Virus record (IMG/VR): IMGVR_UViG_2740892489_000001
Source: a virus
Lineage: Duplodnaviria; Heunggongvirae; Uroviricota; Caudoviricetes
Length of the DNA stretch: 49,169 nucleotides
Direction: 5' to 3' (one strand)
Below are positions 1 to 49,169 of the stretch, piece by piece. Every line of letters begins with the position of its first letter. Within the stretch, counting starts at the first letter, position 1. The position numbers and the translations under genes were made by a program. The notes under the pieces were generated by a model, which was given only the letters and a program-made list of their open reading frames with translations, did not search any database and was not told the DNA's origin.

Positions 1-1237
1 CTACGATAACCGCGCATTCAACATGGCTATCTGTTCGTCGTTCATGTCATCAATCCACATACCGTAAATTTCATACACCATCTGCGCAGTTTCATGCCCC
101 ATTTGGCTGGCTATAAATGCCGGGTTCGCTCCTGCCGTCAACAGCCAGCAGGCAAAAGTATGCCGCGTATGGTACGGATTACGGCGGCGAATACCAGCAC
201 GTTTTACTGCTGCATTCCACCTTGCCCCCAAACTGCTTACCGAGTAATAAGGTTTTTGTTTTCCGTTACACACCCTGGGCATGAAAACAAAATGCAGTTT
301 TTGCTTTTCGGTTCTGCCGTACTCCCGATGATAAAAGGTGATTTCGCTTTTGCGATGATGCCCGGTCAGTTTGTATTGCTCCTTCAGTGCTTCAAGAGCA
401 GGCTGCAGTAGTGTTACTGTTCGGATCCCGGCATTTGTTTTTGGGGGACCGAACATATCAAGTATCGTCAGGTTTCTTCTGACATTCACTATTCCCTTTT
501 CGAGATCCACATCCTCCCACGCCAGAGCTGCCAGTTCCCCGTGACGAAGTCCTGAGTAAACGGCAAATTTCCACAAGTTCTGGCTCTGTCCTTTTTCACT
601 TTCCATTAATGCATTGAATTCTGTTTTAGATAACGGATCAGGCTTTATTCTGTTTCGCTGTAATTTTTTTACTCCTTCAAATGGTTTAGTTGATATAAAT
701 CCCGACTGATACGCAAAACGCAACAGCGAACAGAGCAGGGCGATATAGTTATCAACTGTGCGCACGGTTCTTCCTTTTTTTGTTGGATCTTGGATTATCC
801 AGGTAAAGCGTTTCTCCATGCAGCAGTTCATTCCGGTAGTTTAAGATATCGCTATAACGAATATGTGATATCGGGGTACTTTCACAAATTATTATTCTGA
901 GTGTTTTTAATTGTGATTTCGTTTTCTTCATTGTGTTTGTTGTTAACTCTGTCTCTTTAATTTTTGTCCAGATATCACAAAGCTCTCCGAACGTTTTTAT
1001 GACTCTCGTTGTCACCATTTTTGCCCCAGTGCTGGACTGGGGAAAACGTCTTAAATACTCAAATTCACCGGAGTTTATTTCATGAACTATCAGCGATCTT
1101 AAATTTCCGGCCTTTTTAATATTACTGTTTGTAATCTCCCAGCCTTTTAATGTTTCCCGACATCGTTTTCCTCGAAACATGAACCAGATGCGAATGTATC
1201 TACCTCTAATCTCGACACCTGTTGGTAATTTAGACAT
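1..1237 (-). CDS. intR: Tyrosine integrase (IntR-like); frame broken at T7 run 775-781
   Basis: ORFs 752..1237 (N-terminal part) and 1..831 (C-terminal catalytic part) overlap in different frames and together give about 411 aa. Confidence 0.85.
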
Positions 1238-1238
1238 A

Positions 1239-1454
1239 TCATGAGTCTTTGATAAACTGATTTATCTTTGGATAGTTGTACCAGATAATCCCTCGTTTGC
1301 TGTCTGGCTTACCTAAAGGAGATACTCGTTTGAAGTGGAAGCCCTCCACCCAACAGTTCTGGCGGTATGCTTCAATTTGTCTGGCCCCCAGACCAGTGCG
1401 AAGCATCAGGCCGTATTCAACCATCCACTCTTCATTAAAGATTACTTGTGCCAT
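1239..1454 (-). CDS. Excisionase-like small protein
   Basis: 79-aa ORF directly upstream of int on the same strand; internal Met ([10 protein letters not shown]) taken as start. Confidence 0.55.
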
Positions 1455-1532
1455 CGCATCACCTCTGGCAGGCGCCAATGTTAGACTGAAATTGACGCCC
1501 GATGTTGATTATTAATAATCAGCTATGAAGTT

Positions 1533-1754
1533 TTAATTTGAATACAATGCAATTCTCGAGGACTGAAGTTTCTCGCAATTAAAATTTATCAGTTTTACTT
1601 TCTGCTCTCTGGAAACGCCTGCTTCTTTTTTACCTGAGAGCATTTTTTCGCATTCTGATTTCGTTAGTTTAGATTTTGAATATCTTGTCCAGTTAGTAGG
1701 AGTGCCACCTTCCTTTTCAATAGTGGCGGTAATTTTATACATGAACACCTCCAT
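1533..1754 (-). CDS. YdaC-like small prophage protein
   Basis: Internal Met MEVFMYKITATIEKEGG of the 93-aa ORF; position between xis and ralR as in Rac. Confidence 0.45.
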   Translation of the reverse strand: MEVFMYKITATIEKEGGTPTNWTRYSKSKLTKSECEKMLSGKKEAGVSREQKVKLINFNCEKLQSSRIALYSN

Positions 1755-1929
1755 TATTATTTCCAGTGGTTCGTTTATTCCATCTTTCGAGTGCTTCTTT
1801 TTCACTTCCACCATAACCGGTTCGGGATTCGCATCCGTTACACTTCGCTCGGTAATATCCTGAAATGGCTTTCACCGTTACTGATGGACAACCACAAAAT
1901 GGACATGGTTTAACATTGTCATATCTCAT
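1735..1929 (-). CDS. ralR: Restriction alleviation protein Lar/RalR-like
   Basis: MRYDNVKPCPFCGC...KCNGCESRTGYG Cys-rich motif, 64 aa, immediately upstream of recT. Confidence 0.65.
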   Translation of the reverse strand: MRYDNVKPCPFCGCPSVTVKAISGYYRAKCNGCESRTGYGGSEKEALERWNKRTTGNNNGGVHV

Positions 1930-1985
1930 AATTTTTCTCATAAAAAATATTTCAAGTTGGCGGTGCATTACACCGCCAGGCTGAA

Positions 1986-2795
1986 TTATTCCTCTGAATT
2001 ATCGATTACACTGTATTCCCCGGTTAATACAGAGGAATCTGCAGGATCGATTGTCAGTGGTTCCTTTTCATCCATTGATACTGCACGCTGGATCTCAATT
2101 GATACGGGCAGATATTTGAACAGGCGACGAATAGCCGTTTTCTTTGCCATTTCTTCCCAGTGAGTTACCCACGGCCCGTTATTACCAGCTTTACTCAGGC
2201 TGCGCACCAGCTCAATCTGTTTGCGCGTCATAACTTCAAACTGAGTACCTCCGTCTTTCAGTCTTGCGACAGCATAGACGTGGGTAACCGGGGCATCTTC
2301 GTTTTCTCCCGGGCGGTGTATTAACTTTTCATCAAGGCCAAATTCGAAGCTAAACTCGTCACCTTCACGGACAACACGGGCTGACAGGCTGGCGATTTGA
2401 CCAGAACGGCGAGCCAGATCAATCATGCCGCGATAGCCAATGATTAGCTGAACGTTCTTTTTACCGCTCTTTTCGTTTTTATTACCAAAAGGCAGTAAAT
2501 ATGCATGACCGAGGGCGCTACCTGGCTCAAGTCCGAGCTGTGAACACTGTACGATCGCACTGACAAAACTCATAGTGTCACAGTTTCCTAACGCCGGAAC
2601 TTTACGAATTTCTGTGGTGGCGATACGGATCATACGTTCAGCCGTCATATGGCGTGGAAGAGCTGCTGCCAGTTGCTCTTTCATTGATGGCTGGTTAATA
2701 AAACTAATCACGTCGCTATTTTTAACTGCTGCTGGTGCACGGTTTCCCTGAGTTTTTTGCAGATCGGCTTTTGCGATTGGTGGTTGCTTAGTCAT
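1986..2795 (-). CDS. recT: RecT single-strand annealing protein
   Basis: 269 aa from [14 protein letters not shown]; paired with recE. Confidence 0.9.
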
Positions 2796-5389
2796 TTGCA
2801 TATTCCTTAGCCCAGCGGGGCAGTGATAATGTCTTAATAGCTGGCCATTCATCGGTATTCAGGCAGTCAGACAGGGTTCGCAGATTGCGGTGATATTCCT
2901 GTTGACCTGCCAGTTTTGCTTCTTCGCCCATCATGAAAATTTCAACCGGATAACGTCCGCATTCAATAGTTGTGCTGGCAACCAGAAAAACGAAAGTTGG
3001 CTGCACTCCAAACTGTGCTTCATAACCGTCACTGTAGAATGCATCCTGAACGTGATAGCGGTAGTCGTAATAAGCGGTTTTGAATCGTTGAATATCCGCC
3101 GTAGTTTTCACGTCCATGATCCAGTGAAATTCAGGGATAATTTTGTCCGGACGGCACCGACACAAAATTCCTGTTTCAGGATCTTCCCAGTAAATTGATG
3201 ATTCAGCGTGTCCGGCGCTTTCAACAAGCCATTGCCCCAGCGGCAAAGCCATAACGCTTTGATACATGAGTTCAATTTTCCGGCCTTCTTCCGCAGTGAT
3301 AACCGTTTTTCCTGTGCTTGCGCATTCCATCAGAAACGCTTTCTCTTCTTCTTTTCCGGCGTTTGTACGGCGGTTAAATTCAGGTGCTACGATAAAGCGG
3401 TTACTGAATTCTTCCGGTTCAAGTACCCGGCAGTGGAAAGCAGTTCCTAAATCGAGCGTTTTTGTCTTTGTGGTGTCCACGGGGGCATTTTTACGCCACA
3501 AATATAGTGCCGGAGTATCAGCAATGTCATCGAGCTGAGACTTACTGATACCGGGACCCGCGTGGTAATTCTCATTCGAAATTCCGTAATAAATACCTGG
3601 CTCTATGTCTTCTACGATTACGGGATCTGCGACTTCGCCAGTTTCATCACTGCAATCGCGATGCGGATCGCTGCCAGCATTCTCATTGTGCGGATGTTCA
3701 GCGCCTTCCATTTCCTCCGGATCATTTTCCTTAGCTTCAACCTGACTCTCTTCATCGAATGTTTCCTGGTATGTTGCGTCGCCCATCACCGCACCACAGT
3801 CAGGGCAGTTATCCCCGCCAGTCTGGCCGCAGGCATTGCAGGCTATTTCCGGTTCCTGTTGCACTACTGGCTCAGGTTGATTCATATCTGGGCTGGTTTT
3901 TTCCGTTTCTGGCTGGTTCTGGTACACACAATCGCGAGTCTGGATCCCCTTTACCCATTTCGGATCGTTCGGGTCGCTAATTCCGTCAACAAATTCACCA
4001 CGTGATGCAGCAAGCAATTTATCGGCATCGACAGGATTTTTTGATGGAATGTTTTTCCGGGCTTCATGGAGTTCTGCCCGCAGTTCCTGATATTTCGCAT
4101 CAACAGAATTTACCTGTGACTGAGCATCCAGCGGCTGCGTGTCCTGATGATGTTCAGTTGCGTCCGGTTCCATTGTTTCAGCCTCTCCCTGTTCAACTGC
4201 CGTTGTTCCAGATGGTTGCGGTTTTTCTTCATCATCCTGTTTTCCTTCTTCTGTTACTCGCTGCGGCATCGGGGCAGAGGAGCGACCGCAGGCAATATCC
4301 ACGATTTCCGGATCAGGGTTGGCATGATCGGTTTCAGTCAGTACTTTGTTCAGATATTCAGTGACGTGCGCGGGGATGACCTCGATCCCAATTGGTGCTT
4401 CTTTTACGGACGCAACCACGATGGCGCGGGAATAATCCAGCCCGCCAGGCATGGTGATGAATTTGTCGCGGAAAACAGAAAAGGGCGGTTTATTTTCAGC
4501 GATAATTTCCTCAATGCGTTTAGCGTGTGCCGGATGAAGGTTATAGATGTCCAGATCCATTGAACGGGCCAGTACGCCAGTGGCTACGTCGCGCGCCAGT
4601 GACGTCAGATCGTGTACGAAACCTTCGCCGCGATCGGTGAGGTTTCCGCCGCCAGCATTAGCACCGGAAGCCGTGCGAGTGATGTGTGAAACACGATTAC
4701 CCTTCATCCACTCTTTTGTCAGCAGTCCTCGATCGGTGTAGTCAGCGTTCAGGTATGCTTCGAAAAAAGCAGTTATCAGTCCCAGGTTTGAATTACCAGG
4801 ATTAGGGAAAACTTTGTCAGTGTCACGAACCAGTTTGTGGAGTTCGCGAATTTCCAGCGGGTCGAGCAGGCTGGTTTTGTGGGAAACAGCCAGGGCAGTA
4901 ACAGCCGGTAGTTCTTCAGCCCGAGCAATGTGTAATGCCTGGAGTCCGTCGCGTGAAACGTGCGTTACCGGTTTTTCGCTGCCGTGTTGAGCAAGCCAAC
5001 GAATGGGCAGTTCCTGGCCAGAAATTGGGAGTAGCATATTCTCCTCAATCTCAGTCATGTCTTCGCCGTTGACGTTGGTATTGCCTTGATAGTGAGCGTT
5101 GTCTGGTGCTGCTCCCGGTTTTAGTTCCCATGTCATGGAGTCTTTGCTGAGTTGATAGCGTTCACTCCAGGTAAAATCGATCTCACCTTCAGCGGGCAGG
5201 TCATTAACGACAGGAAAATTCGTGGCAACAGCTTTAAAATAGCTGCTCAGTTTTTTACCTGACTTAACGATCAGGTAGTCCAGAGTGGCACAGGTCGATT
5301 CAAAATCGTTGCTTGCCCACAGGACGACGTCAGGTTCACCGGATGATTTTTTTCGCTTTCCGTAACAGGAAGAGTGGTTTTGTGCTCAT
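2788..5389 (-). CDS. recE: RecE exonuclease VIII; N-terminus displaced by frameshift at T7 run 5347-5353
   Basis: 782-aa ORF from [11 protein letters not shown] ending [13 protein letters not shown]; upstream 17-codon [14 protein letters not shown] fragment joins in frame if the run is one base shorter. Confidence 0.9.
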
Positions 5390-5490
5390 TGTTTTTTAAC
5401 CTCAACTCAGATTAAAATTCGTTTTGTTCAGTGAATGATCTTGCCGGATACACACTGTTCATAGCCTGCGCCATACGCAGGCTATTTCTT

Positions 5491-5767
5491 TCAGATTTCA
5501 CCTTTTAATTTCATTGCAATTAGAGTTGCCAGAAATTCGGCTTTTTTTTCTGCGGGCAGATTCTTTCCGATATGCACCAGGCACATTTTTTTTGACACCT
5601 TCATCAAGTGTTTTTACGTTGCCTGATGGACCATCGATATCAACCACAGTGAATGGGGTTTCTTTATTTTCTGTTTTAATTACGTAGCCAATGCGCTTTC
5701 CTTCCAGATTCACCTCGTGAACAATGTCATCGGTAGTTACAACAGTGGCTTCATAATTGGTAATCAT
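5491..5767 (-). CDS. racC: RacC-like protein; frame broken at T8 run 5586-5593
   Basis: MITNYEATVVTTDDIVHEVNLEGKRIGYVIK... N-terminus; expected C-terminus (MCLVHIGKNLPAEKK...) is in the adjacent frame. Confidence 0.6.
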
Positions 5768-5841
5768 GTTTTTCTCCTTAATTAAGGTTGAGCGAATACC
5801 TGCCATTTCTGGCATAAATTCAGTTTCGAATAGTCAATTAA

Positions 5842-5994
5842 TTAAAGTTCATGTGCCATCTGGTCTTTTTCGGCACAAGCTTCACTGCAATATTTTCTCG
5901 GTTCGTCTTTTGATAAAATCCCGTGCATGAAGTGAAGCATTCTTTCAATAGCTTTGCTTTCTTCAACGTCTTTTTTTGCAAAGGTGGTAAGCAC
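5842..5994 (-). CDS. YdaE-like small Cys-containing protein (GTG start assumed)
   Basis: Open frame ...ESKAIERMLHFMHGILSKDEPRKYCSEACAEKDQMAHEL between racC and kilR; start and frame uncertain. Confidence 0.3.
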   Translation of the reverse strand: MLTTFAKKDVEESKAIERMLHFMHGILSKDEPRKYCSEACAEKDQMAHEL

Positions 5995-6012
5995 ATTTTA
6001 TTTTCTTAGTCA

Positions 6013-6233
6013 TCACCATGACTCCGCCTTTACAGGTAAACCATCACGACCGAGGAAGACTTTAATCATGCGGTCAGTAATGCATGTTTTTGTGGTCAGG
6101 TTACGAATATATAGTTTTCGCTTTTTAATATTGTTTGCCGAGCAATATATGTCCGGCCTTCATGAAGAACATAATCGCCAGGAGTCACACACTGACGTGG
6201 TATTTCATCAGTTCCGAAGTGATGTGCAATCAT
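6013..6233 (-). CDS. kilR: KilR-like killing protein; frame appears broken near 6140
   Basis: [31 protein letters not shown] in one frame, ...[14 protein letters not shown] in the adjacent frame. Confidence 0.5.
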
Positions 6234-6675
6234 AATTATCTCCATTTTTACAAATGAACTTTGTTGATGCGGTGCCTGGTGCCTCCAGGTGACTGCAACC
6301 AGTTAACAATTACAGTCGGCTTTCCCACCCAAACCAATAAGGACTAACATGACTTTTAACTGTGCCACGTGCGCTTAGCCGCATTCACCGCATCACAAAA
6401 TTCACTTTAAAAAGGGCGGACATCAGCCGAACTTCAAGAAAAAAAACTGATGCCGCCAGGACTACACACAGCAATGTCGTTATTTACAACCGGAGGCGCA
6501 CTCCCACCATTTAAATTTAACAGACAAGACCGACTCTTTATGGATATCGGAAATGCGCCTTCGTGTTGTGCCCGGTTTTATTTCACCACCTCCGGGCTTC
6601 GGTGGTCTCGGCTATACCCCTACAGCGAGAGCTTGTGTTAACATTTCAATACCCTTACAGTTGAGAGTTATTGAT

Positions 6676-7164
6676 ATGTTGGATGTATTTACTCCATTGT
6701 TGAAACTTTTTGCTAACGAGCCACTCGAAAGACTTATGTATACGATTATCATTTTTGGTCTCACTCTCTGGCTGATACCGAAAGAGTTTACTGTCGCATT
6801 CAATGCTTATACTGAAATACCTTGGCTCTTTCAGATTATCGTTTTTGCCTTTTCTTTCGTGGTCGCCATTTCCTTCTCAAGATTGCGAGCACATATTCAA
6901 AAGCATTATTCATTACTACCAGAGCAACGAGTATTGCTTCGTTTATCTGAGAAAGAAATCGCTGTATTTAAAGATTTCCTTAAAACAGGAAATCTTATTA
7001 TCACTTCTCCTTGCCGTAACCCGGTTATGAAAAAATTAGAACGGAAGGGCATCATTCAACATCAGAGTGATAGCGCAAACTGTTCTTATTATCTCGTCAC
7101 CGAAAAATACTCCCATTTTATGAAGTTATTCTGGAACAGCAGGAGTAGACGTTTTAATCGTTAG
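6676..7164 (+). CDS. sieB: Superinfection exclusion protein B
   Basis: MLDVFTPLLKLFANEPLERLMYTIIIFGLTLWLIP..., hydrophobic N-terminus; ATG at 6676 inside the longer track ORF. Confidence 0.8.
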   Translation: MLDVFTPLLKLFANEPLERLMYTIIIFGLTLWLIPKEFTVAFNAYTEIPWLFQIIVFAFSFVVAISFSRLRAHIQKHYSLLPEQRVLLRLSEKEIAVFKDFLKTGNLIITSPCRNPVMKKLERKGIIQHQSDSANCSYYLVTEKYSHFMKLFWNSRSRRFNR

Positions 7165-7316
7165 CTTACTGTGTGCTTCTCCAACCATCGGCGCGCACCA
7201 GTTTCGGTTTTAAATGTTTTGCTTTTGGTATACGTCATGGCAGTGAACGTTCCATCCTGGTTGGGGAACACGCCGCACACCAGGGATTCGTTGTTGCCGA
7301 GGTCGATTTTTTGCAT
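7161..7316 (-). CDS. YdaF-like small protein (51 aa)
   Basis: Hand translation MQKIDLGNNESLVCGVFPNQDGTF...; below track length cut-off. Confidence 0.45.
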   Translation of the reverse strand: MQKIDLGNNESLVCGVFPNQDGTFTAMTYTKSKTFKTETGARRWLEKHTVS

Positions 7317-7326
7317 TTTGCGAATC

Positions 7327-7461
7327 TCACATCTTGTTGCTACGTATAGCGACTTCTGCCTGCCAGAGATCCCAGTCGTTGCTGCGTAAAGCCTGCACAG
7401 CCTGGTTGTAAGTGATACCGCAACAATCCATCAAATACTGAACTACTTCGTAATGCACCAT
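7327..7461 (-). CDS. YdaG-like small protein (44 aa)
   Basis: Hand translation MVHYEVVQYLMDCCGITYNQAVQALRSNDWDLWQAEVAIRSNKM. Confidence 0.45.
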   Translation of the reverse strand: MVHYEVVQYLMDCCGITYNQAVQALRSNDWDLWQAEVAIRSNKM

Positions 7462-7631
7462 CTTATCTATCCCCTTAACGCCGGGTGGCGGAACTAACTG
7501 CTGCACTGCAAAATTTGAATCCCGCCGTCATGTTCATACGCCTCGGGCTGGCTACTTAACCCCTGACCACTGCCTGGTAACTCGAAGTATTGCCCGGCGT
7601 TCTGTGGGGCGGGGTGGGTTGGTAGGTATAT

Positions 7632-7674
7632 AATGTACTTTGTGTTCATCATTGTAAAGTACTTTAAGTACATT
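7632..7674. promoter_or_regulatory. Left operator-like cluster of GTACT-core palindromic motifs
   Basis: AATGTACT, AAAGTACT and AAGTACATT within 43 bp downstream of racR; same motif recurs at 8195-8226. Confidence 0.35.
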
Positions 7675-7748
7675 TTATGTATAAAAAAATGAGACGGGAT
7701 AAAGTGAAGCACAAACCCGGAGGGGGACGCTACCGGATTTATGCTGGT

Positions 7749-8171
7749 TTAAGAGGCTTTTTTGTTTTTTTCTTTCGTGCTAACTCTTCGTAAATTGCAT
7801 TGTACTTCTGTTTTTTTCTCCTCAAGAGTTTTTAAAAGTTCATCTGTCTCACTGTCAGGGAGCTCGTCCAGAAGGTCAATGATGATTTTTTGTCTTGGAT
7901 TTAACTCCTGATAGAAACGTATCTGTCCACTTTCTTCTGTATCCTCTCCCAAAAGATAGGTTGGTGTTGTTCCAATGAGTGTTGCTAATTCCCTTAATTT
8001 CTCTCGGCGAGGAATTGTTTCACCATTAAACCATTTGCTAACCGCTTTTGGTGTTAATTTCATTCGACGGGCAATTTCTGCCTGCCTTCCATGTTGTTCA
8101 TAACCAGCGTTTTCACAGGCTAGCGCAAGCCTACTGGCGAACTCTTTACGCGCTTTATCTTCATGAACCAT
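7749..8171 (-). CDS. racR: Prophage repressor, XRE-type HTH (RacR-like)
   Basis: HTH-like segment AEIARRMKLTPKAVSKWFNGETIP; divergent from the Cro-like gene; C-terminus passes two A7 runs so the exact end is uncertain. Confidence 0.7.
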   Translation of the reverse strand: MVHEDKARKEFASRLALACENAGYEQHGRQAEIARRMKLTPKAVSKWFNGETIPRREKLRELATLIGTTPTYLLGEDTEESGQIRFYQELNPRQKIIIDLLDELPDSETDELLKTLEEKKTEVQCNLRRVSTKEKNKKAS

Positions 8172-8250
8172 AAGTTCAATGATATTCGCTCTTGAATGTA
8201 CTGTCAGTTCTGTTATAGCATGTACTCAAAGTTCACATTGTGAGGATGAT
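8172..8250. promoter_or_regulatory. Divergent promoter/operator region between repressor and Cro-like gene
   Basis: AATGTACT (8195-8202) and CATGTACT (8219-8226); possible -35 TTGAAT / -10 TATAGC for the rightward gene. Confidence 0.4.
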
Positions 8251-8505
8251 ATGAACCAGAAAACACTTGAAGATGTAATCAAAACTGTTCGCGTTTCTGT
8301 TGTGGCCGACGTTTGTGGTGTCAGCCAAAGAGCAATCTACAAATGGATGGATAACGGAAAATTGCCTCGCACAGAATATACCGGCGAAACAAATTACGCT
8401 GAAAAAATCGCTCATGCATCAAACGGATTATTTTCTGCCGATGCAATTTTAACTATTGGCAGAAATAAAACTACTACGAAAAAGCTGATGGGAGTTGATT
8501 CATGA
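8251..8505 (+). CDS. Cro/YdaS-like HTH protein
   Basis: MNQKTLEDVIKTVRVSVVADVCGVSQRAIYKWM HTH; GAGGA Shine-Dalgarno before ATG 8251. Confidence 0.6.
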   Translation: MNQKTLEDVIKTVRVSVVADVCGVSQRAIYKWMDNGKLPRTEYTGETNYAEKIAHASNGLFSADAILTIGRNKTTTKKLMGVDS

Positions 8506-8924
8506 AAATCAAGCATGAGCACATCGAATCAGTGTTGTTAGCCCTGGCAGCCGAAAAAGGGCAGGCGTGGGTCGCTAACGCAATTACTGAAGAATATCTG
8601 CACCAGGGGGGCGGCGAATTGCCCCTGGTACCAGGCAAGGACTGGAACAATCAGCAGAATATCTATCATCGTTGGTTGAAAGGTGAAACGAATGCGCAAA
8701 GGGAAAAAATTCAGAAACTGATCCCTGCGGTTCTGGCAATTCTTCCTCGCGAGCTGCGTCACCGACTCTGCATCTTCGATACCTTGGAACGCCGTGCATT
8801 ACTGGCGGCACAGGATGCACTGAGTACGGCAATTGATGCGCATGATGATGCAGTCCAGGCCGTTTACCGTAAAGCACATTTCAGCGGCGGCGGTTCTCCT
8901 AGCGATTCTGTCGTAGTGCATTGA
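8502..8924 (+). CDS. YdaT-like (CII-position) regulatory protein
   Basis: 140-aa ORF overlapping the upstream stop (ATGA); position as ydaT in Rac. Confidence 0.5.
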   Translation: MKIKHEHIESVLLALAAEKGQAWVANAITEEYLHQGGGELPLVPGKDWNNQQNIYHRWLKGETNAQREKIQKLIPAVLAILPRELRHRLCIFDTLERRALLAAQDALSTAIDAHDDAVQAVYRKAHFSGGGSPSDSVVVH

Positions 8925-9001
8925 TTGAAATTAATCGTACCGAACTGTTTTGTTCGGTATCAGTTAAATGTAACGCTGCGAGCGTTACAAGGTGAAAACA
9001 A

Positions 9002-9790: not shown

Positions 9791-9796
9791 CTGACC

Positions 9797-10543: not shown

Positions 10544-10565
10544 TTTTTACCGGGAGGAAATTTTA

Positions 10566-16924: not shown

Positions 16925-16940
16925 CGAGGCGCTCCGGAGG

Positions 16941-17639: not shown

Positions 17640-17715
<76 letters not shown>

Positions 17716-33144: not shown

Positions 33145-33192
33145 TTTTCCGTTATTCCTCCTGTGGTACTGCCCTACAGGGGGACGCATTGA

Positions 33193-39142: not shown

Positions 39143-39687
39143 AAACGGGGTCCGAAGCCATCCGGGCGCTGGCCATGCAGATCCCGGCGTTTCGTCAGAA
39201 ACTGAGCGACGGCTGGTACCAGGTACGCATTGCCGGGCGTGATGCCGGTGAAACCGAATTGTCTGCCCGTCTTAATGAGCCGCTGGCAAATGGTGCCGTG
39301 ATCCACATCGTGCCGCGTCTGGCGGGAGCTAAAAGTGGCGGTGTGTTTCAGGTGGTGCTGGGGGCGGCTCTGATTGCGGTGGCATGGTGGAACCCTGTGG
39401 GCTGGCTGGGTGCCGCGGCTGTATCGGGCATGTATGCGGCAGGGGCCAGTATGATCCTGGGCGGAGTGGCGCAGATGCTGGCACCGAAAGCCAGGACGCC
39501 CACGGCAGCAAGTACAGATAACGGCAAACAGAACACCTATTTCTCCTCACTGGATAACATGGTTGCCCAGGGCAATGTTCTGCCCGTTCTGTACGGTGAA
39601 ATGCGCGTGGGGTCGCGGGTGGTCTCTCAGGAGATCAGCACGGCAGACGAAGGGGATGGTGGTCAGGTTGTGGTGATTGGTCGCTGA
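39040..39687 (+). CDS. Tail tip assembly protein I
   Basis: MAATHTLPLASPGMARICLYGDLQRFGRRIDLRV...; Gly/Ala-rich hydrophobic centre. Confidence 0.85.
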   Translation: MAATHTLPLASPGMARICLYGDLQRFGRRIDLRVKTGSEAIRALAMQIPAFRQKLSDGWYQVRIAGRDAGETELSARLNEPLANGAVIHIVPRLAGAKSGGVFQVVLGAALIAVAWWNPVGWLGAAAVSGMYAAGASMILGGVAQMLAPKARTPTAASTDNGKQNTYFSSLDNMVAQGNVLPVLYGEMRVGSRVVSQEISTADEGDGGQVVVIGR

Positions 39688-39747
39688 TGCAAAACATTTT
39701 ATGTGAAACCGCCTGCGGGCGGTTTTGTCGTTTATGGAGCGTGATGA

Positions 39748-42700
39748 ATGGGTAAAGGCAGCAGTAAGGGGCATACCCCGCGCGAAGCGAAGGACAACCT
39801 GAAATCCACGCAGTTGCTGAGTGTGATTGATGCCATCAGTGAAGGGCCGATTGAAGGTCCGGTGGATGGATTAAAAAGCGTGCTGCTGAACAGTACGCCG
39901 GTGCTGGACAGTGAGGGGAATACCAACATCGTCGGTGTCACGGTGGTGTTCCGGGCTGGTGAGCAGGAGCAGACTCCGCCGGAGGGATTTGAATCCTCCG
40001 GCTCCGAGACGGTGCTGGGTACGGAAGTGAAATACGACACGCCGATCACCCGCACCATCACGTCGGCAAACATCGACCGACTGCGCTTTACCTTCGGTGT
40101 GCAGGCACTGGTGGAAACCACCTCAAAGGGGGACCGGAATCCGTCGGAAGTTCGCCTGCTGGTTCAGATACAACGTAACGGTGGCTGGGTGACGGAAAAA
40201 GACATCACCATTAAGGGCAAAACCACCTCGCAGTATCTGGCCTCGGTGGTGGTGGATAACCTGCCGCCGCGCCCGTTTAATATCCGGATGCGCAGAATGA
40301 CGCCGGACAGCACCACAGACCAGCTGCAGAACAAAACGCTCTGGTCGTCATACACCGAAATCATCGATGTGAAACAGTGCTACCCGAACACGGCACTGGT
40401 CGGCGTGCAGGTGGATTCGGAGCAGTTCGGCAGCCAGCAGGTGAGCCGTAATTATCATCTGCGCGGGCGCATTCTGCAGGTGCCGTCGAACTATAACCCG
40501 CAGACGCGGCAATACAGCGGTATCTGGGACGGAACGTTTAAGCCAGCATACAGCAACAACATGGCCTGGTGTCTGTGGGATATGCTGACCCATCCGCGCT
40601 ACGGCATGGGGAAACGTCTTGGTGCGGCGGATGTGGACAAATGGGCGCTGTATGTCATCGGCCAGCATTGCGATCAGTCGGTGCCGGACGGTTTTGGCGG
40701 CACGGAGCCGCGCATCACCTGTAATGCGTACCTGACCACACAGCGCAAGGCGTGGGATGTGCTCAGTGATTTCTGCTCTGCGATGCGCTGTATGCCGGTA
40801 TGGAACGGGCAGACGCTGACGTTCGTGCAGGACCGACCGTCGGATAAGGTGTGGACCTATAACCGCAGTAATGTGGTGATGCCGGATGATGGTGCGCCGT
40901 TCCGCTACAGCTTCAGCGCCCTGAAGGACCGCCATAATGCCGTTGAGGTGAACTGGATTGACCCGAATAACGGCTGGGAGACGGCGACAGAGCTTGTGGA
41001 GGACACGCAGTCCATTGCCCGTTACGGTCGTAACGTCACGAAGATGGATGCTTTTGGCTGTACCAGCCGGGGGCAGGCACACCGCGCCGGGCTGTGGCTG
41101 ATTAAAACAGAACTGCTGGAAACGCAGACCGTGGACTTCAGCGTGGGTGCCGAAGGGCTTCGCCATGTACCGGGCGATGTCATTGAAATCTGCGATGATG
41201 ACTATGCCGGTATCCGCACCGGCGGGCGCGTGCTGGCGGTAAACAGCCAGACCCGGACGCTGACGCTCGACCGTGAAATCACGCTGCCATCTTCCGGCAC
41301 CACGCTGATAAGCCTGGTTGACGGGCAGGGGAGTCCGGTCAGCGTGGAGGTTCAGTCCGTCACCGACGGCGTGAAGGTGAAAGTGAGCCGTGTTCCTGAC
41401 GGCGTTGCTGAATACAGCGTATGGGGGCTGAAGCTGCCGACGCTGCGCCAGCGCCTGTTCCGCTGCGTGAGTATCCGTGAGAACGACGACGGCACGTATG
41501 CCATCACCGCCGTGCAGCATGTACCGGAAAAAGAGGCCATCGTGGATAACGGGGCGCACTTTGACGGCGACCAGAGCGGCACGGTAAATGGTGTCACGCC
41601 GCCAGCGGTGCAGCACCTGACCGCAGAAGTCACCGCAGACAGCGGGGAATACCAGGTGCTGGCCCGCTGGGACACGCCGAAGGTGGTGAAGGGCGTGAGC
41701 TTCCTGCTTCGCCTGACCGTGGCAGCGGATGACGGCCGTGAGCGGCTGGTCAGCACGGCCCGGACGACGGAAACCACTTACCGCTTCACACAACTGGCTC
41801 TGGGGAACTACAGGCTGACAGTCCGGGCAGTAAATGCGTGGGGGCAGCAGGGCGATCCGGCGTCGGTATCGTTCCGGATTGCCGCACCGGCAGCGCCGTC
41901 GCGGATTGAGCTGACGCCGGGCTATTTTCAGATAACCGCCACGCCGCATCTTGCGGTTTATGACCCGACGGTACAGTTTGAGTTCTGGTTCTCGGAAAAA
42001 CGGATTGCGGATATCAGGCAGGTTGAAACCAGCGCGCGTTATCTTGGTACGGCACTGTACTGGATAGCCGCCAGTATCAATATCAAACCGGGCCATGATT
42101 ATTATTTTTACGTTCGCAGTGTGAACACCGTTGGCAAATCGGCATTCGTGGAGGCTGTCGGCCAGCCGAGTGATGATGCATCAGGCTATCTGGATTTTTT
42201 CAAAGGCGAGATAGGGAAAACCCATCTGGCTCAGGAGCTGTGGACGCAGATTGATAACGGTCAGCTTGCGCCTGACCTGGCTGAAATCAGGACGTCCATT
42301 ACGGATGTCAGCAATGAAATCACACAGACCGTCAATAAGAAACTGGAAGACCAGAGTGCAGCGATCCAGCAGATACAGAAGGTTCAGGTTGATACAAATA
42401 ATAATCTGAACAGCATGTGGGCTGTGAAGCTGCAACAGATGAAGGACGGACGCCTTTATATTGCGGGTATCGGTGCCGGTATTGAGAATACGCCAGCAGG
42501 AATGCAGAGTCAGGTGCTGCTGGCGGCAGACAGGATTGCGATGATTAATCCTGCGAATGGCAACACAAAACCGATGTTTGTTGGTCAGGGTGATCAGATA
42601 TTCATGAATGAAGTGTTCCTGAAGCGCCTGACGGCCCCCACCATTACCAGCGGCGGCAATCCTCCGGCCTTTTCCCTGACACCGGACGGAAAGCTGACCG

Positions 42701-43227
42701 CTAAAAATGCGGATATCAGTGGCAGTGTGAATGCGAACTCCGGGACGCTCAACAACGTTACGATAAATGAGAACTGTCAGATTAAAGGGAAACTGTCAGC
42801 CAACCAGATTGAAGGCGATATTGTCAAAACAGTGGGTAAGGCTTTCCCGCGGGACTCCCGGGCACCGGAGCGGTGGCCATCAGGAACCATTACCGTCAGG
42901 ATTTATGACGATCAGCCGTTTGACCGGCAGATTGTTATTCCGGCGGTGGCATTCAGCGGTGCTAAACATGAGAGAGAGCATACTGATATTTACTCCTCAT
43001 GCCGCCTGATAGTGAAGAAAAATGGTGCTGAAATTTATAACCGTACCGCGCTGGATAATACGCTGATTTACAGTGGTGTTATTGATATGCCAGCTGGTCA
43101 CGGCCACATGACGCTGGAGTTTTCGGTGTCAGCATGGCTGGTAAATGACTGGTATCCCACAGCAAGTATCAGCGATTTGCTGGTTGTGGTGATGAAGAAA
43201 GCCACCGCAGGCATCAGTATCAGCTGA
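39748..43227 (+). CDS. Host specificity / central tail fibre protein J
   Basis: 1159 aa, immediately after I. Confidence 0.9.
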
Positions 43228-43246
43228 ATTTTATAACCCATATACG

Positions 43247-43270
43247 GGCGCCAGAAATGGCGCCTTTTTT
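43247..43270 (+). terminator. Rho-independent terminator after J
   Basis: GGCGCC-AGAAAT-GGCGCC followed by T6. Confidence 0.6.
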
Positions 43271-43294
43271 ATTGCAGAAAAGCGAGAGGTAATT

Positions 43295-43893
43295 ATGCGT
43301 AAAGTTTGTGCAGCCATTTTGTCCGCAGCCATCTGTCTGGCCGTATCCGGTGCGCCTGCATGGGCGTCTGAGCAGCAGGCCACACTGAGCGCAGGGTATC
43401 TTCATGCCCGTACGAACGCTCCCGGCAGCGATAATCTGAACGGGATTAACGTGAAATACCGTTATGAGTTTACGGACACGCTGGGGCTGATTACGTCATT
43501 CAGTTATGCCAACGCTGAAGATGAGCAAAAACGCATTACAGCGATACCCGCTGGCATGAGGATTCCGTGCGTAATCGCTGGTTCAGCGTGATGGCGGGGC
43601 CGTCTGTGCGCGTGAATGAATGGTTCAGCGCGTATGCGATGGCGGGTATGGCTTACAGCCGTGTGTCGACTTTCTCCGGGGATTATATCCGCGTAACTGA
43701 CAACAAGGGGAAAACGCACGATGTGCTGACCGGAAGTGATGACGGTCGCCACAGCAACACGTCTCTGGCGTGGGGAGCTGGCGTGCAGTTTAACCTGACC
43801 GAATCGGTGGCCATTGATATTGCTTATGAAGGCTCCGGCAGTGGTGACTGGCGCACTGACGGTTTCATCGTGGGTGTCGGTTATAAATTCTGA
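43295..43893 (+). CDS. lom: Lom-family outer membrane protein; frame broken at A5 run 43527-43531
   Basis: Signal peptide MRKVCAAILSAAICLAVSGAPAWA; C-terminal ORF 43567..43893 (...SVMAGPSVRVNEWF...GVGYKF) joins with one extra A. Confidence 0.85.
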
Positions 43894-43920
43894 TTAGCCA
43901 GGTAACACAGTGTTATGACA

Positions 43921-43946
43921 GCCCGCCGGTTCAGGCGGGCTTTTTT
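43921..43946 (+). terminator. Rho-independent terminator after lom
   Basis: GCCCGCC-GGTTCAG-GCGGGC followed by T6. Confidence 0.65.
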
Positions 43947-43957
43947 GTGGGGTGAAT

Positions 43958-46900
43958 ATGGCAGTAAAGATTTCAGGTGTACTGAAAGACGGTGCAGGTA
44001 AACCGGTACAGAACTGCACAATCCAGCTGAAAGCAAAACGTAACAGCACCACGGTGGTGGTGAACACGCTGGCCTCAGAAAATCCGGATGAAGCCGGGCG
44101 TTACAGCATGGACGTTGAGTACGGGCAGTACAGCGTTATTCTGTTGGTGGAGGGATTCCCGCCGTCACATGCCGGGACCATCACCGTGTATGAAGATTCC
44201 CGACCCGGTACGCTGAATGATTTTCTCGGTGCCATGACGGAGGATGATGCCCGTCCTGAGGCACTGCGCCGTTTTGAACTGATGGTGGAAGAGGTGGCGC
44301 GTAACGCGTCCGCGGTGGCACAGAACACGGCAGCCGCGAAGAAGTCAGCCAGCGATGCCGGCACATCAGCCCGTGAGGCGGCAACCCATGCGACTGATGC
44401 TGCAGGCTCAGCACGCGCAGCCAGCACGTCAGCCGGACAGGCCGCTTCGTCGGCTCAGTCAGCGTCTTCCAGCGCAGGAACGGCATCAACAAAGGCCACT
44501 GAAGCATCGAAAAGTGCTGCTGCTGCAGAGTCCTCAAAAAGCGCGGCAGCTACCAGTGCCAGTGCCGCGAAAACGTCAGAAACGAATGCGGCAGCGTCAC
44601 AAAAATCTGCAGCCACTTCTGCATCCGCCGCGACCACGAAGGCGTCAGAAGCTGCCACCTCAGCCCGGGATGCGGCGGCCTCAAAAGAGGCAGCGAAATC
44701 ATCAGAAACGAACGCATCATCAAGCGCCAGTAGTGCCGCTTCCTCGGCAACGGCGGCAGGCAATTCCGCGAAGGCGGCAAAGACGTCTGAGACAAACGCC
44801 AGGTCTTCTGAAACGGCAGCGGGACAGAGCGCCTCGGCTGCGGCAGGCTCAAAAACAGCGGCTGCGTCGTCTGCCAGTGCCGCGTCAACAAGTGCCGGGC
44901 AGGCCTCAGCCAGTGCCACCGCCGCCGGAAAATCGGCAGAAAGTGCCGCATCGTCTGCTTCAACAGCCACAACGAAGGCTGGCGAAGCCACTGAACAGGC
45001 CAGCGCAGCAGCGAGGTCTGCTTCCGCAGCGAAGACATCCGAGACGAACGCGAAAGCGTCGGAAACCAGCGCAGAATCCTCAAAAACGGCTGCCGCATCG
45101 TCCGCCAGTTCGGCGGCGTCATCGGCATCATCGGCGTCTGCTTCAAAAGATGAGGCGACCAGACAGGCGTCAGCAGCGAAGGGCAGCGCCACGACGGCAT
45201 CCACGAAGGCGACAGAGGCAGCTGGCAGTGCGACGGCGGCAGCTCAGAGCAAAAGTACGGCGGAATCCGCGGCAACGCGCGCCGAGACAGCGGCAAAACG
45301 GGCAGAGGATATTGCATCCGCCGTGGCGCTTGAGGATGCGAGCACGACGAAAAAGGGGATAGTACAGCTCAGCAGTGCGACCAACAGTACGTCTGAAACG
45401 CTGGCGGCAACGCCAAAGGCAGTAAAAGCAGCCTATGACAATGCAGAGAAACGTCTGCAGAAAGACCAGAACGGTGCTGATATTCCCGACAAGGACCGCT
45501 TCCTGAGTAACATTAATGTTTACAGCAAAGGTGAAGTGGATCAGAAAAAGGGGATGCGATACGTTGTGGTAAATGCCCCGGCGGGTGTCCAGGAAGGTAA
45601 ATATTATCCGTTAGTGATAAAAAGGAATGACAGCCATCGGGCATCCCGCGTTGTCATTTCAACGCCAAGTCGCTCAGCTAATCACAGAATGAATAATTGT
45701 GAGTTTAATGGTTTTGTTTGCGCAGGCGGCTGGACGGACCGGGGTAGCTATGCCTGTGGTATGTTCTGGGCTTATTCAACATCGGAACGCGCTATTCATT
45801 CCATTCTGATGAGTAATAAAGGCGATACCGTAGACAGCGTATTCTATATAGAAGGTGGGGCATTTCCCGTAGAGGTCTTTTTAGAAGAAGGTCTCTCCGT
45901 TACTGCACCTGCTTCTGATTATATTGTTGCTGAAACGACTTATAAATTTGGCGCAACTGATCCTTATTCTGAATCAGTTGCGGTAAATTTAATTTTAGAT
46001 TTTAAACAAGGTAATGGATTTTATAGTTCGTATCCTGTTTTGAGTAAGTCAGACATTAGCGGGAATAAGATTTACGCTAATGATGAAGTTATTGTCCGTA
46101 GTCAGAACGCGTTAAGGATGATTGCAGGTGATTACGGTGTCATATGGCGAAATGATGGAGCAAATACTTACTTGCTCATGACTGATAAAGGCGACCAGTA
46201 CGGTGGCTGGAACGGTCTTCGACCATTTGCAGTAAATAACGCAACAGGTGAAGTGACGATCAATACACCACTTAATTCTCCTAAGGGGATTAAGGGAAAT
46301 TCTGATACAGCTACGAAACTTCAGACAGCAATAAAAATATCTGGTGTTTCGTTTGATGGTTCTACTGATATCACTTTAACCGCTGCGCATGTTGCTGCTT
46401 TTGCCAGAAGAGCAACGGATACGTATGCCGATGCGGATGGGGGCGTTCCATGGAATGCCGAATCAGGCGCTTACAATGTCACCCGCTCTGGCGACAGCTA
46501 TATTCTGGTTAACTTCTATACCGGAGTCGGAAGTTGCCGGACCTTGCAGATGAAGGCACATTACAGAAATGGAGGTCTGTTCTACCGTTCCTCAAGAGAT
46601 GGCTATGGTTTTGAGGAAGACTGGGCAGAAGTTTATACCTCGAAAAATCTTCCACCAGAAAGCTACCCAGTCGGCGCACCAATCCCGTGGCCATCAGATA
46701 CCGTTCCGTCTGGTTATGCCCTGATGCAGGGGCAGGCTTTTGACAAATCTGCATACCCGAAACTTGCAGCGGCTTATCCGTCAGGCGTGATCCCTGATAT
46801 GCGTGGCTGGACGATTAAGGGCAAACCTGCCAGTGGTCGGGCCGTATTGTCTCAGGAACAGGACGGCATTAAATCGCATACCCACAGCGCCAGCGCATCC

Positions 46901-47353
46901 AGTACGGATTTGGGGGCGAAAACCACATCGTCGTTTGATTACGGCACTAAATCCACGAATAACACTGGTGCGCATACCCATAGTTTAAGTGGCAGCACGA
47001 ATGCAGCTGGTAATCACAGCCATAGAGATGGCCGTCGATTTAACCCCAGTGTTTTTAAAGATACTTATCAATATGGTTATACAAGCTCAGGTCAAAATAC
47101 CTGGGGTGTACAAGGCTCAGTAGGTATGTCTACGGGGTGGTTAGCTAATACCAGTACAGATGGTAATCATAGCCACTCACTGTCCGGCACAGCAGCATCT
47201 GCAGGTGCACACGCGCATACTGTCGGTATTGGTGCTCATACGCACTCCGTTGCGATTGGTTCACATGGACACACCATCACCGTTAACGCTGCTGGTAACG
47301 CGGAAAACACCGTCAAAAACATCGCATTTAACTATATTGTGAGGCTTGCATAA
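43958..47353 (+). CDS. Side tail fibre protein (Stf-like)
   Basis: [28 protein letters not shown]-terminus, long Ala/Ser/Thr repeat region, His-rich C-terminus (HTHS, HSHS, HAHT). Confidence 0.85.
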
Positions 47354-47930
47354 TGGCATTCAGAATGAGTGAACAACCACGGACCATAAAAATTTATAAT
47401 CTGCTGGCCGGAACTAATGAATTTATTGGTGAAGGTGACGCATATATTCCGCCTCATACAGGTCTGCCAGCAAACAGTACCGATATTGCACCACCAGATA
47501 TTCCTGCTGGCTTTGTGGCTGTTTTCAACAGTGATGAGGCATCGTGGCATCTCGTTGAAGACCATCGGGGTAAAACGGTTTATGACGTAGCGTCAGGGGA
47601 CGAGTTATTTATTTCTGAACTCGGTCCGTTACCGGAAAATGTTACCTGGTTATCGCCGGAAGGGGAGTTTCAGAAGTGGAACGGCACAGCCTGGGTGAAG
47701 GATACGGAAGCAGAAAAAACTGTTCCGGATCCGGGAGGCGGAAGAAACAAAAAAACAACCTGATGCAGGTAGCCAGTGAGCATATTGCGCCGCTTCAGGA
47801 TGCTGCAGATCTGGAAATTGCAACGGAGGAAGAAATCTCGTTGCTGGAAGCATGGAAAAAGTATCGGGTATTGCTGAACCGTGTTGATACGTCAACTTCA
47901 CAGGATATTGAATGGCCAGCACTGCCGTAG
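47353..47930 (+). CDS. Tail fibre assembly protein (Tfa-like); frame broken at A6 47714-47719 and A7 47749-47755
   Basis: [37 protein letters not shown]... then C-terminal [21 protein letters not shown]... in ORF 47676..47930. Confidence 0.8.
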
Positions 47931-48028
47931 GGTAAAACATATAAATTCTATAATTAGATGTATCTTTCCATTTACGGCAAGGAAGGGGGCTTGGAAGACG
48001 TAAAGCATCTCACACCGAGATTATTTTT

Positions 48029-48619
48029 TTATATGTCAGGTGTCTGAAGTTTTGCTTTGGCTCTTAAAATGGTTTGCCGCGAGGTTTTGAATTCCCGGGC
48101 AATGGCACTTATACTTACACCTGACTTAATTCGTTCGAATACCACCTGTTTCTGTTCTTCATTTAACACAGGTGGTCGACCAAAACGTTTCCCTGCGCCG
48201 CGGGCTCTTACTATCCCGGAATGAGTGCGTTCAAGTAAAAGGTCTCGTTCAAATTCAGCGACTGCTGAAATTACTTGCATCATCATTTTTCCTGTTGGAC
48301 TGGTCAGGTCAATGCCCCCCAATGCTAAGCAATGCACTCTGATACCTGTTTCGGTCAGTTGTTCCACTGTTTTCCTGATATCCATTGCATTACAACCAAG
48401 GCGATCCAGTTTTGTCACAATCAATTGATCACCACATTTCAGGCGAGCAAGCAACCGGTTAAAACCAGGACGCTCACTGGTTGCTGCTGAGCCGCTAATG
48501 TGTTCTTCGATTATTTGCTGAGGTTTGATTTTAAAACCTGCACTTTCGATTTCCCGGCGTTGATTTTCGGTGGTCTGATCCAGCGTTGATATCCGACAGT
48601 AAGCAAAAATTCGAGACAT
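48029..48619 (-). CDS. pin: Serine recombinase, Pin/Gin/Hin-type DNA invertase
   Basis: [20 protein letters not shown] catalytic Ser motif and C-terminal HTH, 196 aa. Confidence 0.9.
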
Positions 48620-48935
48620 AGTGAGACTCTATACGAAATTGGTGTTCATATCATAATGCATCTCAGAAAATAATTATGATTATTTTTGTGCATATTTGTA
48701 TGTACACGTTCGAAAATAAACGAATGCGTATGCAACCCCGTAATTTTGGTGAGACCCAAAATCGATTTTGTGAAAAATGGCTTTAACTCGGTTTGTTTTT
48801 CGAGTTCCGGGCGGACTCAAGGAAGAAGAATAGTGTTGCGTGTTATTTTAACCAGATTTCAAGTTGTTTGGTCGTGGAAAAGTGGAGCAAAATGTTGTTA
48901 AAGTGGAAAAATGATAAAAAAGTAAGTTTATTATA

Positions 48936-49169
48936 TTACATTTTACCATTTAAATTTTGGTTGTCTTTAAGAACTGATATCGCTGTTTGTAATAATTCTT
49001 TGTTATCCAGCCATGATTTTTTCTTTATGTTTCCTTCAATGTAATCAAGCAATGTTCTGGTATTGATAGGTCTTCCCTGTTTTGCTACTTCCACTACAGC
49101 ATCCCCTAGGATAATTCTTACTTCAGGAAGCTGCGCAGGGAACCACTTTAGGGTGTCTTTTGATTTCAT
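48936..49169 (-). CDS. Small prophage protein (YnaE-like)
   Basis: 77-aa ORF whose ATG is the last three bases of the window. Confidence 0.45.
   Translation of the reverse strand: MKSKDTLKWFPAQLPEVRIILGDAVVEVAKQGRPINTRTLLDYIEGNIKKKSWLDNKELLQTAISVLKDNQNLNGKM

Follow-up and report, generated by a model that had tools for sequence, protein, structure and literature searches.

The Rac element of Escherichia coli K-12 is a well-known defective prophage, whose defect stems from a large deletion reaching from the terminase to the tail genes. The stretch of 49,169 nucleotides analysed here (the window) holds a Rac-like lambdoid prophage of E. coli in which 17 genes are out of frame. A second body of work relevant to this element concerns the Ion Torrent PGM, for which a raw calling accuracy of ~68% for 6-mers has been reported, with error-prone flows tending to be A or T, and with long homopolymers being under-called in raw reads so that deletions are dominant (PMC3623719). 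The frame breaks in the window are almost certainly one-base run-length errors in the consensus of an Ion Torrent draft and not the result of gene decay.

The window corresponds to bases 140472-189640 of GenBank LAXB01000011.1, from E. coli RCE08. The loci L013 and L015, which come from this contig (NCBI GCA_001630965.1), match the window base for base over positions 29748-49169 and 1-11237. RCE08 is a 2015-era draft assembly, described as a 'meta-assembly' of isolates from a single Crohn's disease patient. For this project (LAXB00000000), reads came from an Ion Torrent PGM (318 chip, 200-bp kit), and MIRA 4.0 served as the assembler (PMC5517970). According to its authors, homopolymer errors cause 'artificial frame shifts', and the gain from HomoHomo correction is limited, artificial indels being lowered 'by the factor of about 2.5' (PMC5517970). 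The prophage region was presumably excised at gene boundaries later, by a provirus-calling pipeline. The contig is also in circulation among viral contigs collected under ENA ERZ26120531, as record IMG_VR_16614. A 40-base pattern with the terS alleles of the window gave no match in a separate copy of the IMG/VR viral contigs.

Run lengths were compared with those in eight near-identical finished E. coli genomes (L001-L004 and L006-L009), 4 to 8 of which cover each site; the prophage relatives are 99.7-99.9% identical in DNA. Only differences from every covering reference were counted as private. Past ~42,200, L001 aligns poorly on account of its divergent alleles of J, lom and stf; the many apparent indels relative to it in this part are noise of the alignment and did not enter the count. 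The window contains 35 private length differences, consisting of 32 insertions and 3 deletions (Table 1), and at all 35 sites every covering reference has the other length. All are changes in the length of a homopolymer or doublet, by one base in 34 cases and by three bases in the remaining one; 29 lie in coding sequences and 6 are intergenic.

Table 1. Private length differences in the window relative to the covering reference genomes (+/-, strand; run lengths given as base and number)
Gene or region	Gene coordinates	Strand	Site	Window	References	Remarks
intR	1-1237	-	775-781	T7	T6	frame broken
recE	2788-5389	-	5347-5353	T7	T6	frame broken
racC	5491-5767	-	5586-5593	T8	T7	frame broken
ydaE	5842-6013	-	5971-5977	T7	T6	frame broken; overlooked in first pass
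kilR	6013-6233	-	6142	G	GG	frame broken; overlooked in first pass
intergenic			6439-6446	A8	A7	
repressor-like HTH gene	7749-8171	-	7758-7763	T6	T5	first of three +1 events
repressor-like HTH gene	7749-8171	-	7765-7771	T7	T6	
repressor-like HTH gene	7749-8171	-	7811-7817	T7	T6	
DUF977 gene	11308-11731	+	11339-11345	A7	A6	frame broken
477-aa hypothetical gene	12441-13876	-	13023-13030	T8	T7	
477-aa hypothetical gene	12441-13876	-	13443-13449	T7	T6	net +2
NA37-family nucleoid-associated protein gene	13848-14907	-	14414-14420	T7	T6	frame broken
DUF1133 gene	16742-17286	+	16909-16914	A6	A5	overlooked in first pass
DUF1133 gene	16742-17286	+	16944-16950	A7	A6	net +2
intergenic, downstream of tRNA-Gly			17834-17841	T8	T7	
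intergenic			17922-17927	T6	T7	deletion
intergenic			18176-18184	T9	T8	
intergenic			18201-18208	A8	A7	
trkG	19886-21344	+	20030-20037	T8	T7	frame broken
TAGT-family glycosyltransferase gene (PF20691)	22263-23196	+	22498-22504	T7	T6	frame broken
terS	23387-24486	+	23513-23520	A8	A7	first of five
terS	23387-24486	+	23542-23545	A4	A3	
terS	23387-24486	+	23561-23567	A7	A6	
terS	23387-24486	+	23575-23583	A9	A8	
terS	23387-24486	+	23622-23630	A9	A8	net +5
portal (DUF4055) gene	25771-27178	+	25921-25927	A7	A6	frame broken
tail tube gene	32179-33144	+	33084-33095	A12	A9 (all eight)	in frame
tape measure gene	34128-37363	+	37068-37074	T7	T6	product cut to 1002 aa
tape measure gene	34128-37363	+	37077-37081	T5	T4	net +2; overlooked in first pass
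M-like minor tail gene	37356-37695	+	37574-37582	T9	T8	frame broken
lom	43295-43893	+	43527-43531	A5	A6	deletion; frame broken
tfaR	47353-47930	+	47714-47719	A6	A5	
tfaR	47353-47930	+	47749-47755	A7	A6	net +2
intergenic, between tfaR and pinR			48024-48030	T7	T6	

The 17 break sites listed by the first-pass annotation are all real, each being a single-base length difference from every covering reference, and its figure of about 17 was too low. Besides the frame breaks in ydaE and kilR and the second events in the DUF1133 and tape measure genes, its list lacked the in-frame changes. In the repressor-like gene the three insertions add up to +3 and the frame is regained, yielding a protein that is one residue longer (140 aa against 139) and contains a scrambled stretch. 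The longer run in the tail tube gene gives its product an additional Lys close to the C-terminus. Its placing of all breaks at A/T homopolymers agrees with 34 of the 35 differences, kilR being the sole event outside A/T runs. The further statement that a single-base change restores each full-length protein does not apply to five genes: terS, whose five events fall inside 118 bases, requires five corrections, and the tape measure gene, tfaR, the DUF1133 gene and the 477-aa island gene require two each. The co-occurrence of insertions and deletions, put forward as a signature of miscalling, is nominally correct but makes a weak argument at 32 against 3. Furthermore, the broken glycosyltransferase gene had been taken for a ydaY-like gene, whereas the ydaY homologue is found at 33295-33654. 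A PADLOC scan of two island proteins gave no match.

The changes depend strongly on run length. A/T runs with a reference length of at least 5 make up 2.9% of the window and contain 32 of the 35 indels (binomial P = 5.5e-46). The proportion of changed A/T runs rises from 1/1117 at a reference length of 3 (0.09%) and 1/431 at 4 (0.2%), through 3/154 at 5 (1.9%) and 16/78 at 6 (21%), to 8/15 at 7 (53%) and 5/8 at 8 or more (63%). Both strands are hit (A runs, 12/47 changed; T runs, 17/54), coding and non-coding runs are changed at rates that do not differ (23/83 vs 6/18, P = 0.77), and the indels are evenly spread over the window given its run content (bins, chi-square P = 0.56). None of the G/C runs of at least 6 is changed, although there are only 9 such runs, for which simple arithmetic from the observed rates predicts about 2 changes (P about 0.1), so that the comparison has too little power to establish a specificity for A/T. 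The share of insertions is 91%, far from a 1:1 ratio (P = 4e-7). In addition, no private substitution is present over window positions 1-37004, beside 28 private indels.

The same pattern is seen in the host chromosome. The chromosomal flanks of the same contig, which provided 13.3 kb of host DNA for this comparison, show 10 A/T-run indels and 0 SNPs. The left flank (9,249 bases), compared with the same-lineage EC_J_9, accounts for four of these, two of them within dgcM, and the right flank (4,058 bases) for six insertion events. Per kb, the flanks hold 0.75 indels and the prophage 0.71, and runs of at least 6 are altered in 7/17 and 29/101 cases, respectively (P = 0.39).

Taken together, the relatives' run lengths, the run-length dependence, the absence of substitutions, the flanks and the Ion Torrent source bear out the initial suggestion of homopolymer miscalling in place of pseudogenes, and the comparison with close finished genomes that had been proposed as a check gives a shorter or in-frame run in the relatives at every site. 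The frame breaks are an ordinary artefact, with no biological feature behind them. On the PGM, identical bases in succession give one flow signal, which becomes less certain with increasing run length, so that the consensus is often one base off in runs of at least 6. The direction of the bias in this consensus, which is over-called in 91% of cases, is opposite to that reported for raw PGM reads; possible origins are a recalibration by the base caller, the rules by which MIRA builds its consensus, or the HomoHomo step. As judged from the sequence comparison, every individual site would be an error of this kind. The true prophage is probably an intact Rac-like lambdoid element with a complete structural module, its genes identical or nearly so to those of the relatives. 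PacBio was also considered as the platform, as A/T insertion errors have been described for its assemblies, including those of E. coli (PMC8574707), but the source paper names Ion Torrent. For Nanopore methylation-motif errors, positions 1-37004 offer no private substitution to inspect, and this idea became moot once the platform was known.

Genuine pseudogenisation, in which a cryptic prophage like K-12 Rac has decayed by slippage in A/T runs, is very improbable. Unconstrained decay would also make coding and non-coding indels equally frequent, and some relatives do carry true lesions, such as IS insertions and a truncated ynaK. However, neither mixed lesions with a matching substitution divergence nor a restriction to the element is found: the 28 indels over 37 kb come without any private substitution, the window is free of nonsense mutations, of deletions and of IS elements, and none of the 35 changes is present in the eight closest references. 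The pattern has equal density in the flanks, dgcM included, it affects the cargo gene trkG, which encodes a host-type potassium transporter, and it crowds five events into a short segment of terS. The source paper itself admits residual artificial indels (PMC5517970). The extension of the pattern past the prophage would suit a hypermutator lineage, for example a mismatch-repair-defective one, with true slippage throughout the genome. Indeed, the indel rate in mismatch-repair-defective E. coli rises exponentially with homopolymer length, but there 30,061 substitutions were recorded against 5,324 indels, or ~5.6 per small indel (PMC8510543). Here, not one substitution accompanies either the 28 indels counted for the prophage or the 10 of the flanks, and at the published ratio 28 indels without a substitution have a probability of ~1e-23. 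Moreover, ~29% of A/T runs of at least 6 are altered, and 0.7 indels per kb over ~5 Mb would amount to thousands of frameshifts genome-wide, which a culturable isolate would not be expected to survive. We know of no counterpart to the 32:3 insertion bias in the mismatch-repair-defective spectrum and count it against a hypermutator, which we regard as extremely unlikely.

A/T runs of ~9 or more can make RNA polymerase slip and thereby regain a reading frame, and such runs are present in the window, four with 9 bases and one with 12. Functional slippery tracts, in which programmed frameshifting, transcriptional slippage or phase-variable runs gate prophage genes, nevertheless have a negligible likelihood. 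Programmed sites keep the shifted form, whereas the eight relatives all have the in-frame form here and a single, fixed run length per site. Most affected runs span just 6-8 bases, and the events include six in intergenic DNA and, beyond the prophage, ten in the host flanks. Neither a shifted form nor run polymorphism is found among the relatives, with the exception of the terS A9 run at 23575-23583. This run also occurs in NCTC11129 and E29, whose terS genes are flagged as frameshifted in RefSeq, and probably in NCTC11476, which has the same 147-base match at this position. Among the 194 complete E. coli genomes carrying the terS segment, none matches the 151 bases of the window at 99% or more, and the run at 23575-23583 is A8 in 191 and A9 in three, counting NCTC11476. 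The change from A8 to A9 at this terS site could be a genuine polymorphism, and the tail tube gene, with its expansion from A9 to A12, may show either an error or a genuine polymorphism. That a few of the 35 differences are genuine is unlikely; these two would be the best candidates, the terS run possibly being a tract prone to slippage, through which terminase expression, and with it prophage viability, would be turned on and off.

The importance of consensus errors in this contig lies in data hygiene rather than in biology. Frameshifts split 17 of the ~60 annotated genes on the contig, and through these split genes chimeric and truncated proteins are fed into protein databases. Protein look-ups for the 1002-aa 'tape measure' and for an intact 1131-aa variant of the tail fibre (stf) each had this contig as their sole match. 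Measures of gene content or completeness would mis-score the contig as a degraded prophage. Similar contigs could be flagged by many +1/-1 run-length differences, in the absence of private substitutions, relative to near-identical relatives.

The pattern resembles Ion Torrent and 454 miscalls in its homopolymer-confined indels, their steep rise with run length, the artificial frameshifts in coding sequences and a substitution level an order of magnitude below that of indels. It differs from them in that published raw Ion Torrent reads under-call long runs, whereas 32 of 35 runs were over-called here, and in that all but one event fall in A/T runs, a comparison in which G/C is represented by only 9 runs. 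Long-read-only assemblies (PacBio RSII, ONT) likewise contain split genes and false pseudogenes (PMC8812927, PMC8574707), and the +1 in the terS A8 run is shared with NCTC11129, E29 and probably NCTC11476. Unlike for PacBio, however, the platform is Ion Torrent, and 0.7 indels per kb is ~100x the 37 indels per genome of a high-coverage PacBio assembly of E. coli (PMC8574707). The prophage shares with K-12 Rac the integration site adjoining ttcA and the genes intR, xisR, rcbA, ralR, recET, racC, kilR and sieB, a ydaSTUV-type region, and trkG, ynaK, ydaY, lom, stf, tfaR, pinR and ynaE. In contrast to K-12 Rac, the full structural module is kept in this element, and its apparent lesions are artefacts of the assembly.

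The window is a complete Rac-like lambdoid prophage of E. coli, bounded by the intR stop codon (position 1) and the ynaE start codon (position 49169). With gene names taken from the annotation of near-identical RefSeq loci and transferred to window coordinates, the order is intR, xisR, rcbA, ralR, recT, recE, racC, ydaE, kilR and sieB, followed by the repressor/cro/ydaT region, the replication genes, Q, a two-gene island and hok. These are followed by tRNA-Thr and tRNA-Gly, the lysis genes, trkG, a ParB/Srx gene, a TAGT-family gene, terS, terL, the portal, head and tail genes, and finally J, lom, stf, tfaR and pinR. Over positions 1-37004, identity to the closest complete genomes (e.g. NZ_OW967178, THO-008) is 99.9%, and over 21966-49169 it is 99.6-99.7% to EC_J_9 (NZ_CP075062), MINF_2E, 13KWH46 (NZ_CP019250) and strain 2196.

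Several genes deserve separate mention. The tRNA pair, known from RefSeq annotation of reference sequence identical to the window, follows the DUF1133 gene and precedes the lysis cassette, and neither tRNA gene contains a length difference. The ParB/Srx-domain gene is located directly 5' of the TAGT gene, the pair standing just upstream of terS. The TAGT gene, called 'ydaY-like' (at 22498) in the first-pass annotation, belongs instead to the TET-associated glycosyltransferase family (PF20691, E = 5.5e-35; 'GREB1-related' in one RefSeq record), and the ydaY homologue is found elsewhere. No TET/JBP dioxygenase gene was seen near the pair, which might serve Rac-like phages as a DNA-modification module. 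The island between the antiterminator gene Q and hok encodes a 477-aa protein, for which neither Pfam nor PADLOC gave a match, and a protein of the NA37 family (37-kDa nucleoid-associated; PF04245, E = 1.2e-12), and looks like moron-type cargo. In ynaE, a TAA stop of four references is CAA in the window, so that YnaE is full length there (77 aa, PF27475), compared to the 60-aa product annotated in the references.

Coordinates of features in the window, its contig and RefSeq loci
Feature	Sequence	Position	Strand
Two-gene island	window	12441-14907	-
tRNA-Thr and tRNA-Gly	window	17640-17793	
ParB/Srx-domain gene	window	21482-22270	
GGA-unit difference	window	22252	
TAGT-family gene	window	22263-23196	
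ydaY homologue	window	33295-33654	
stf substitution tract	window	44760-45388	
ynaE	window	48936-49169	-
ynaE codon CAA (TAA in references)	window	48987-48989	
dgcM	L015 (stretch of LAXB01000011.1)	15444-16676	
RefSeq frameshift	L011	14893-15988	
RefSeq frameshift	L012	14893-15988	
RefSeq frameshift	L007 (reference locus)	17489-17763	
RefSeq frameshift	L007 (reference locus)	27844-28444	
RefSeq frameshift	L001 (reference locus)	9195-9984	
RefSeq frameshift	L006 (reference locus)	20995-21784	

The window was aligned to eight near-identical finished loci, and only private differences, common to all references covering the site, were kept. This yielded 35 length differences, comprising 32 insertions (31 of one base and one of three) and 3 one-base deletions. 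The first-pass annotation had reported about 17 frame breaks, all at A/T homopolymers. The breaks are real and all 17 named sites are among the 35, which makes the original number an undercount, and A or T runs hold 34 of the 35 events, the sole exception being kilR (G in the window, GG in the references). The mixture of insertions and deletions described there is not borne out, with 91% of the events being insertions (32 vs 3), nor is the idea of one correction per gene, as five genes need two to five. Runs of A or T with a reference length of at least 5 contain 32 of the 35 events while making up 2.9% of the window (P = 5.5e-46). The events fall in CDSs in 29 cases and between genes in 6, leaving 17 genes out of frame: intR, recE, racC, ydaE, kilR, DUF977, the 477-aa island gene, the NA37-family gene, DUF1133, trkG, the TAGT-family gene, terS, portal, tape measure, the M-like tail gene, lom and tfaR. 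Two further genes change length in frame, namely the repressor, with three +1 events in 60 bases (net +3), and the tail tube gene, in which A9 has become A12 and one lysine is gained. In terS, a 151-base segment holds five +1 events; of 194 complete E. coli genomes with this stretch, none matches the window's version at 99% or more.

The share of A/T runs that are changed climbs steadily with reference length, from 1 of 1117 at three bases to 1 of 431 at four, 3 of 154 at five, 16 of 78 at six, 8 of 15 at seven and 5 of 8 at eight or more. Among runs of at least 6, coding (23/83) and non-coding (6/18) runs do not differ (Fisher P = 0.77); A runs (12/47) and T runs (17/54) are changed alike, and the events are even along the window given its run content (chi-square P = 0.56). 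None of the G/C runs of at least 6 is changed (0/9, with about 2 expected), a sample too small to establish A/T specificity. This pattern looks like measurement error.

Events of the same kind occur in the chromosomal flanks carried by the source contig. The left flank (9,249 bases, abgB to ttcA), compared with EC_J_9 of the same lineage, has 0 SNPs and 4 indels, and the right flank (4,058 bases with ynaM, uspF and ompN), compared with four references, likewise has 0 SNPs, with 6 insertions totalling 7 bases; every one of these flank events is in an A/T run. In dgcM of the left flank, A6 to A7 (+1) and T6 to T5 (-1) lie 24 bases apart, restoring the frame, so that dgcM is annotated as full length (410 aa) with about 8 misread codons; a frameshift screen would miss compensating errors of this kind. 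Per kb, the flanks carry 0.75 events and the prophage 0.71, and runs of at least 6 are changed in 7 of 17 and 29 of 101 cases, respectively (P = 0.39). The phenomenon is a property of the assembly and not of the prophage.

The frameshift-truncated tape measure protein has its only exact match in ENA ERZ26120531, record IMG_VR_16614, a 49,169-base contig that is the window itself. Intact gpJ and the N-terminal int fragment also match exactly in GCA_001630965.1, contig LAXB01000011.1 (314,936 bases). Stretches of this contig are identical to window positions 29748-49169 and 1-11237, so the window corresponds to its bases 140472-189640, trimmed at gene boundaries. LAXB00000000 is RCE08, E. coli originating from a patient with Crohn's disease; MIRA 4.0 was used to assemble it from Ion Torrent PGM reads (318 chip, 200-bp kit; Rakitina et al., BMC Genomics 2017, PMC5517970). 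Its authors state that homopolymer errors caused artificial CDS frameshifts and that their HomoHomo correction cut artificial indels only ~2.5-fold (PMC5517970); by their own account, therefore, many remain. Long homopolymers are reported to be under-called in raw PGM reads; the flows prone to error tend to be those of A or T, and most 'high-frequency indels' insert A/T or delete C/G (PMC3623719). In the consensus, 32 runs of the window are over-called and 3 under-called, and the flanks have 9 and 1; later base-caller calibration, the way MIRA forms its consensus or HomoHomo, which is guided by BLAST, could each be the cause. Neither this insertion bias nor the point on A/T specificity changes the verdict.

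That a cryptic prophage has truly decayed is very improbable as the cause of the breaks: private substitutions (over positions 1-37004) and other lesion types are missing, none of the changes is present in any of the eight references, and the host flanks are affected too. Positions 1-37004 hold 28 private indels and no private substitution, each SNP relative to the best reference also being found in another reference. The substitution-to-indel ratio also contradicts a mutator lineage, which deserves equally little credence: mismatch-repair-defective E. coli mutation-accumulation lines gathered 30,061 substitutions vs 5,324 small indels (PMC8510543), and 28 indels without a substitution have P ~1e-23 under that spectrum. 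If real and genome-wide, the events would imply that a culturable isolate carries frameshifts by the thousand. Programmed slippage or phase variation is less credible still. Comparison with closely related finished genomes, the check proposed in the first-pass annotation, gives an in-frame run in all, of one fixed length per site, and the only exception is terS, where A8 is A9, as in the window, in NCTC11129 and E29.

Taken together, the sequence comparisons and the platform stated in the source paper support the earlier attribution to homopolymer miscalling rather than pseudogenes. The frame breaks do not count as a biological feature, and most likely the Rac-like prophage is intact. The practical value is a warning, as this contig feeds fragmented pseudo-proteins into viral and protein collections, and other Ion Torrent assemblies of the same study probably do likewise.

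Some other differences look real. A 630-base tract of stf carries 30 private substitutions relative to the four references covering the tail fibre gene, to which the surrounding region is otherwise nearly identical; it looks like a tail-fibre recombination tract rather than error. In the final part of the ParB/Srx gene, the second reference group has two GGA units more (6 bases, in frame) than the window and the first group; this is a real short-repeat polymorphism common to finished genomes and not a private error.

Occasional frameshifts of the same kind at A/T runs are also found in RefSeq 'complete' genomes. RefSeq flags terS of both NCTC11129 and E29 as frameshifted, and NCTC11476, with the same 147-base terS match, probably has A9 as well. 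KE55 shows T7 to T6 in racC and a DUF1367 frameshift, and EC-1639 and THO-008 show A6 to A7 in a hypothetical gene. These are probably residual assembly errors too, at most a few per reference genome compared to 35 in the window.
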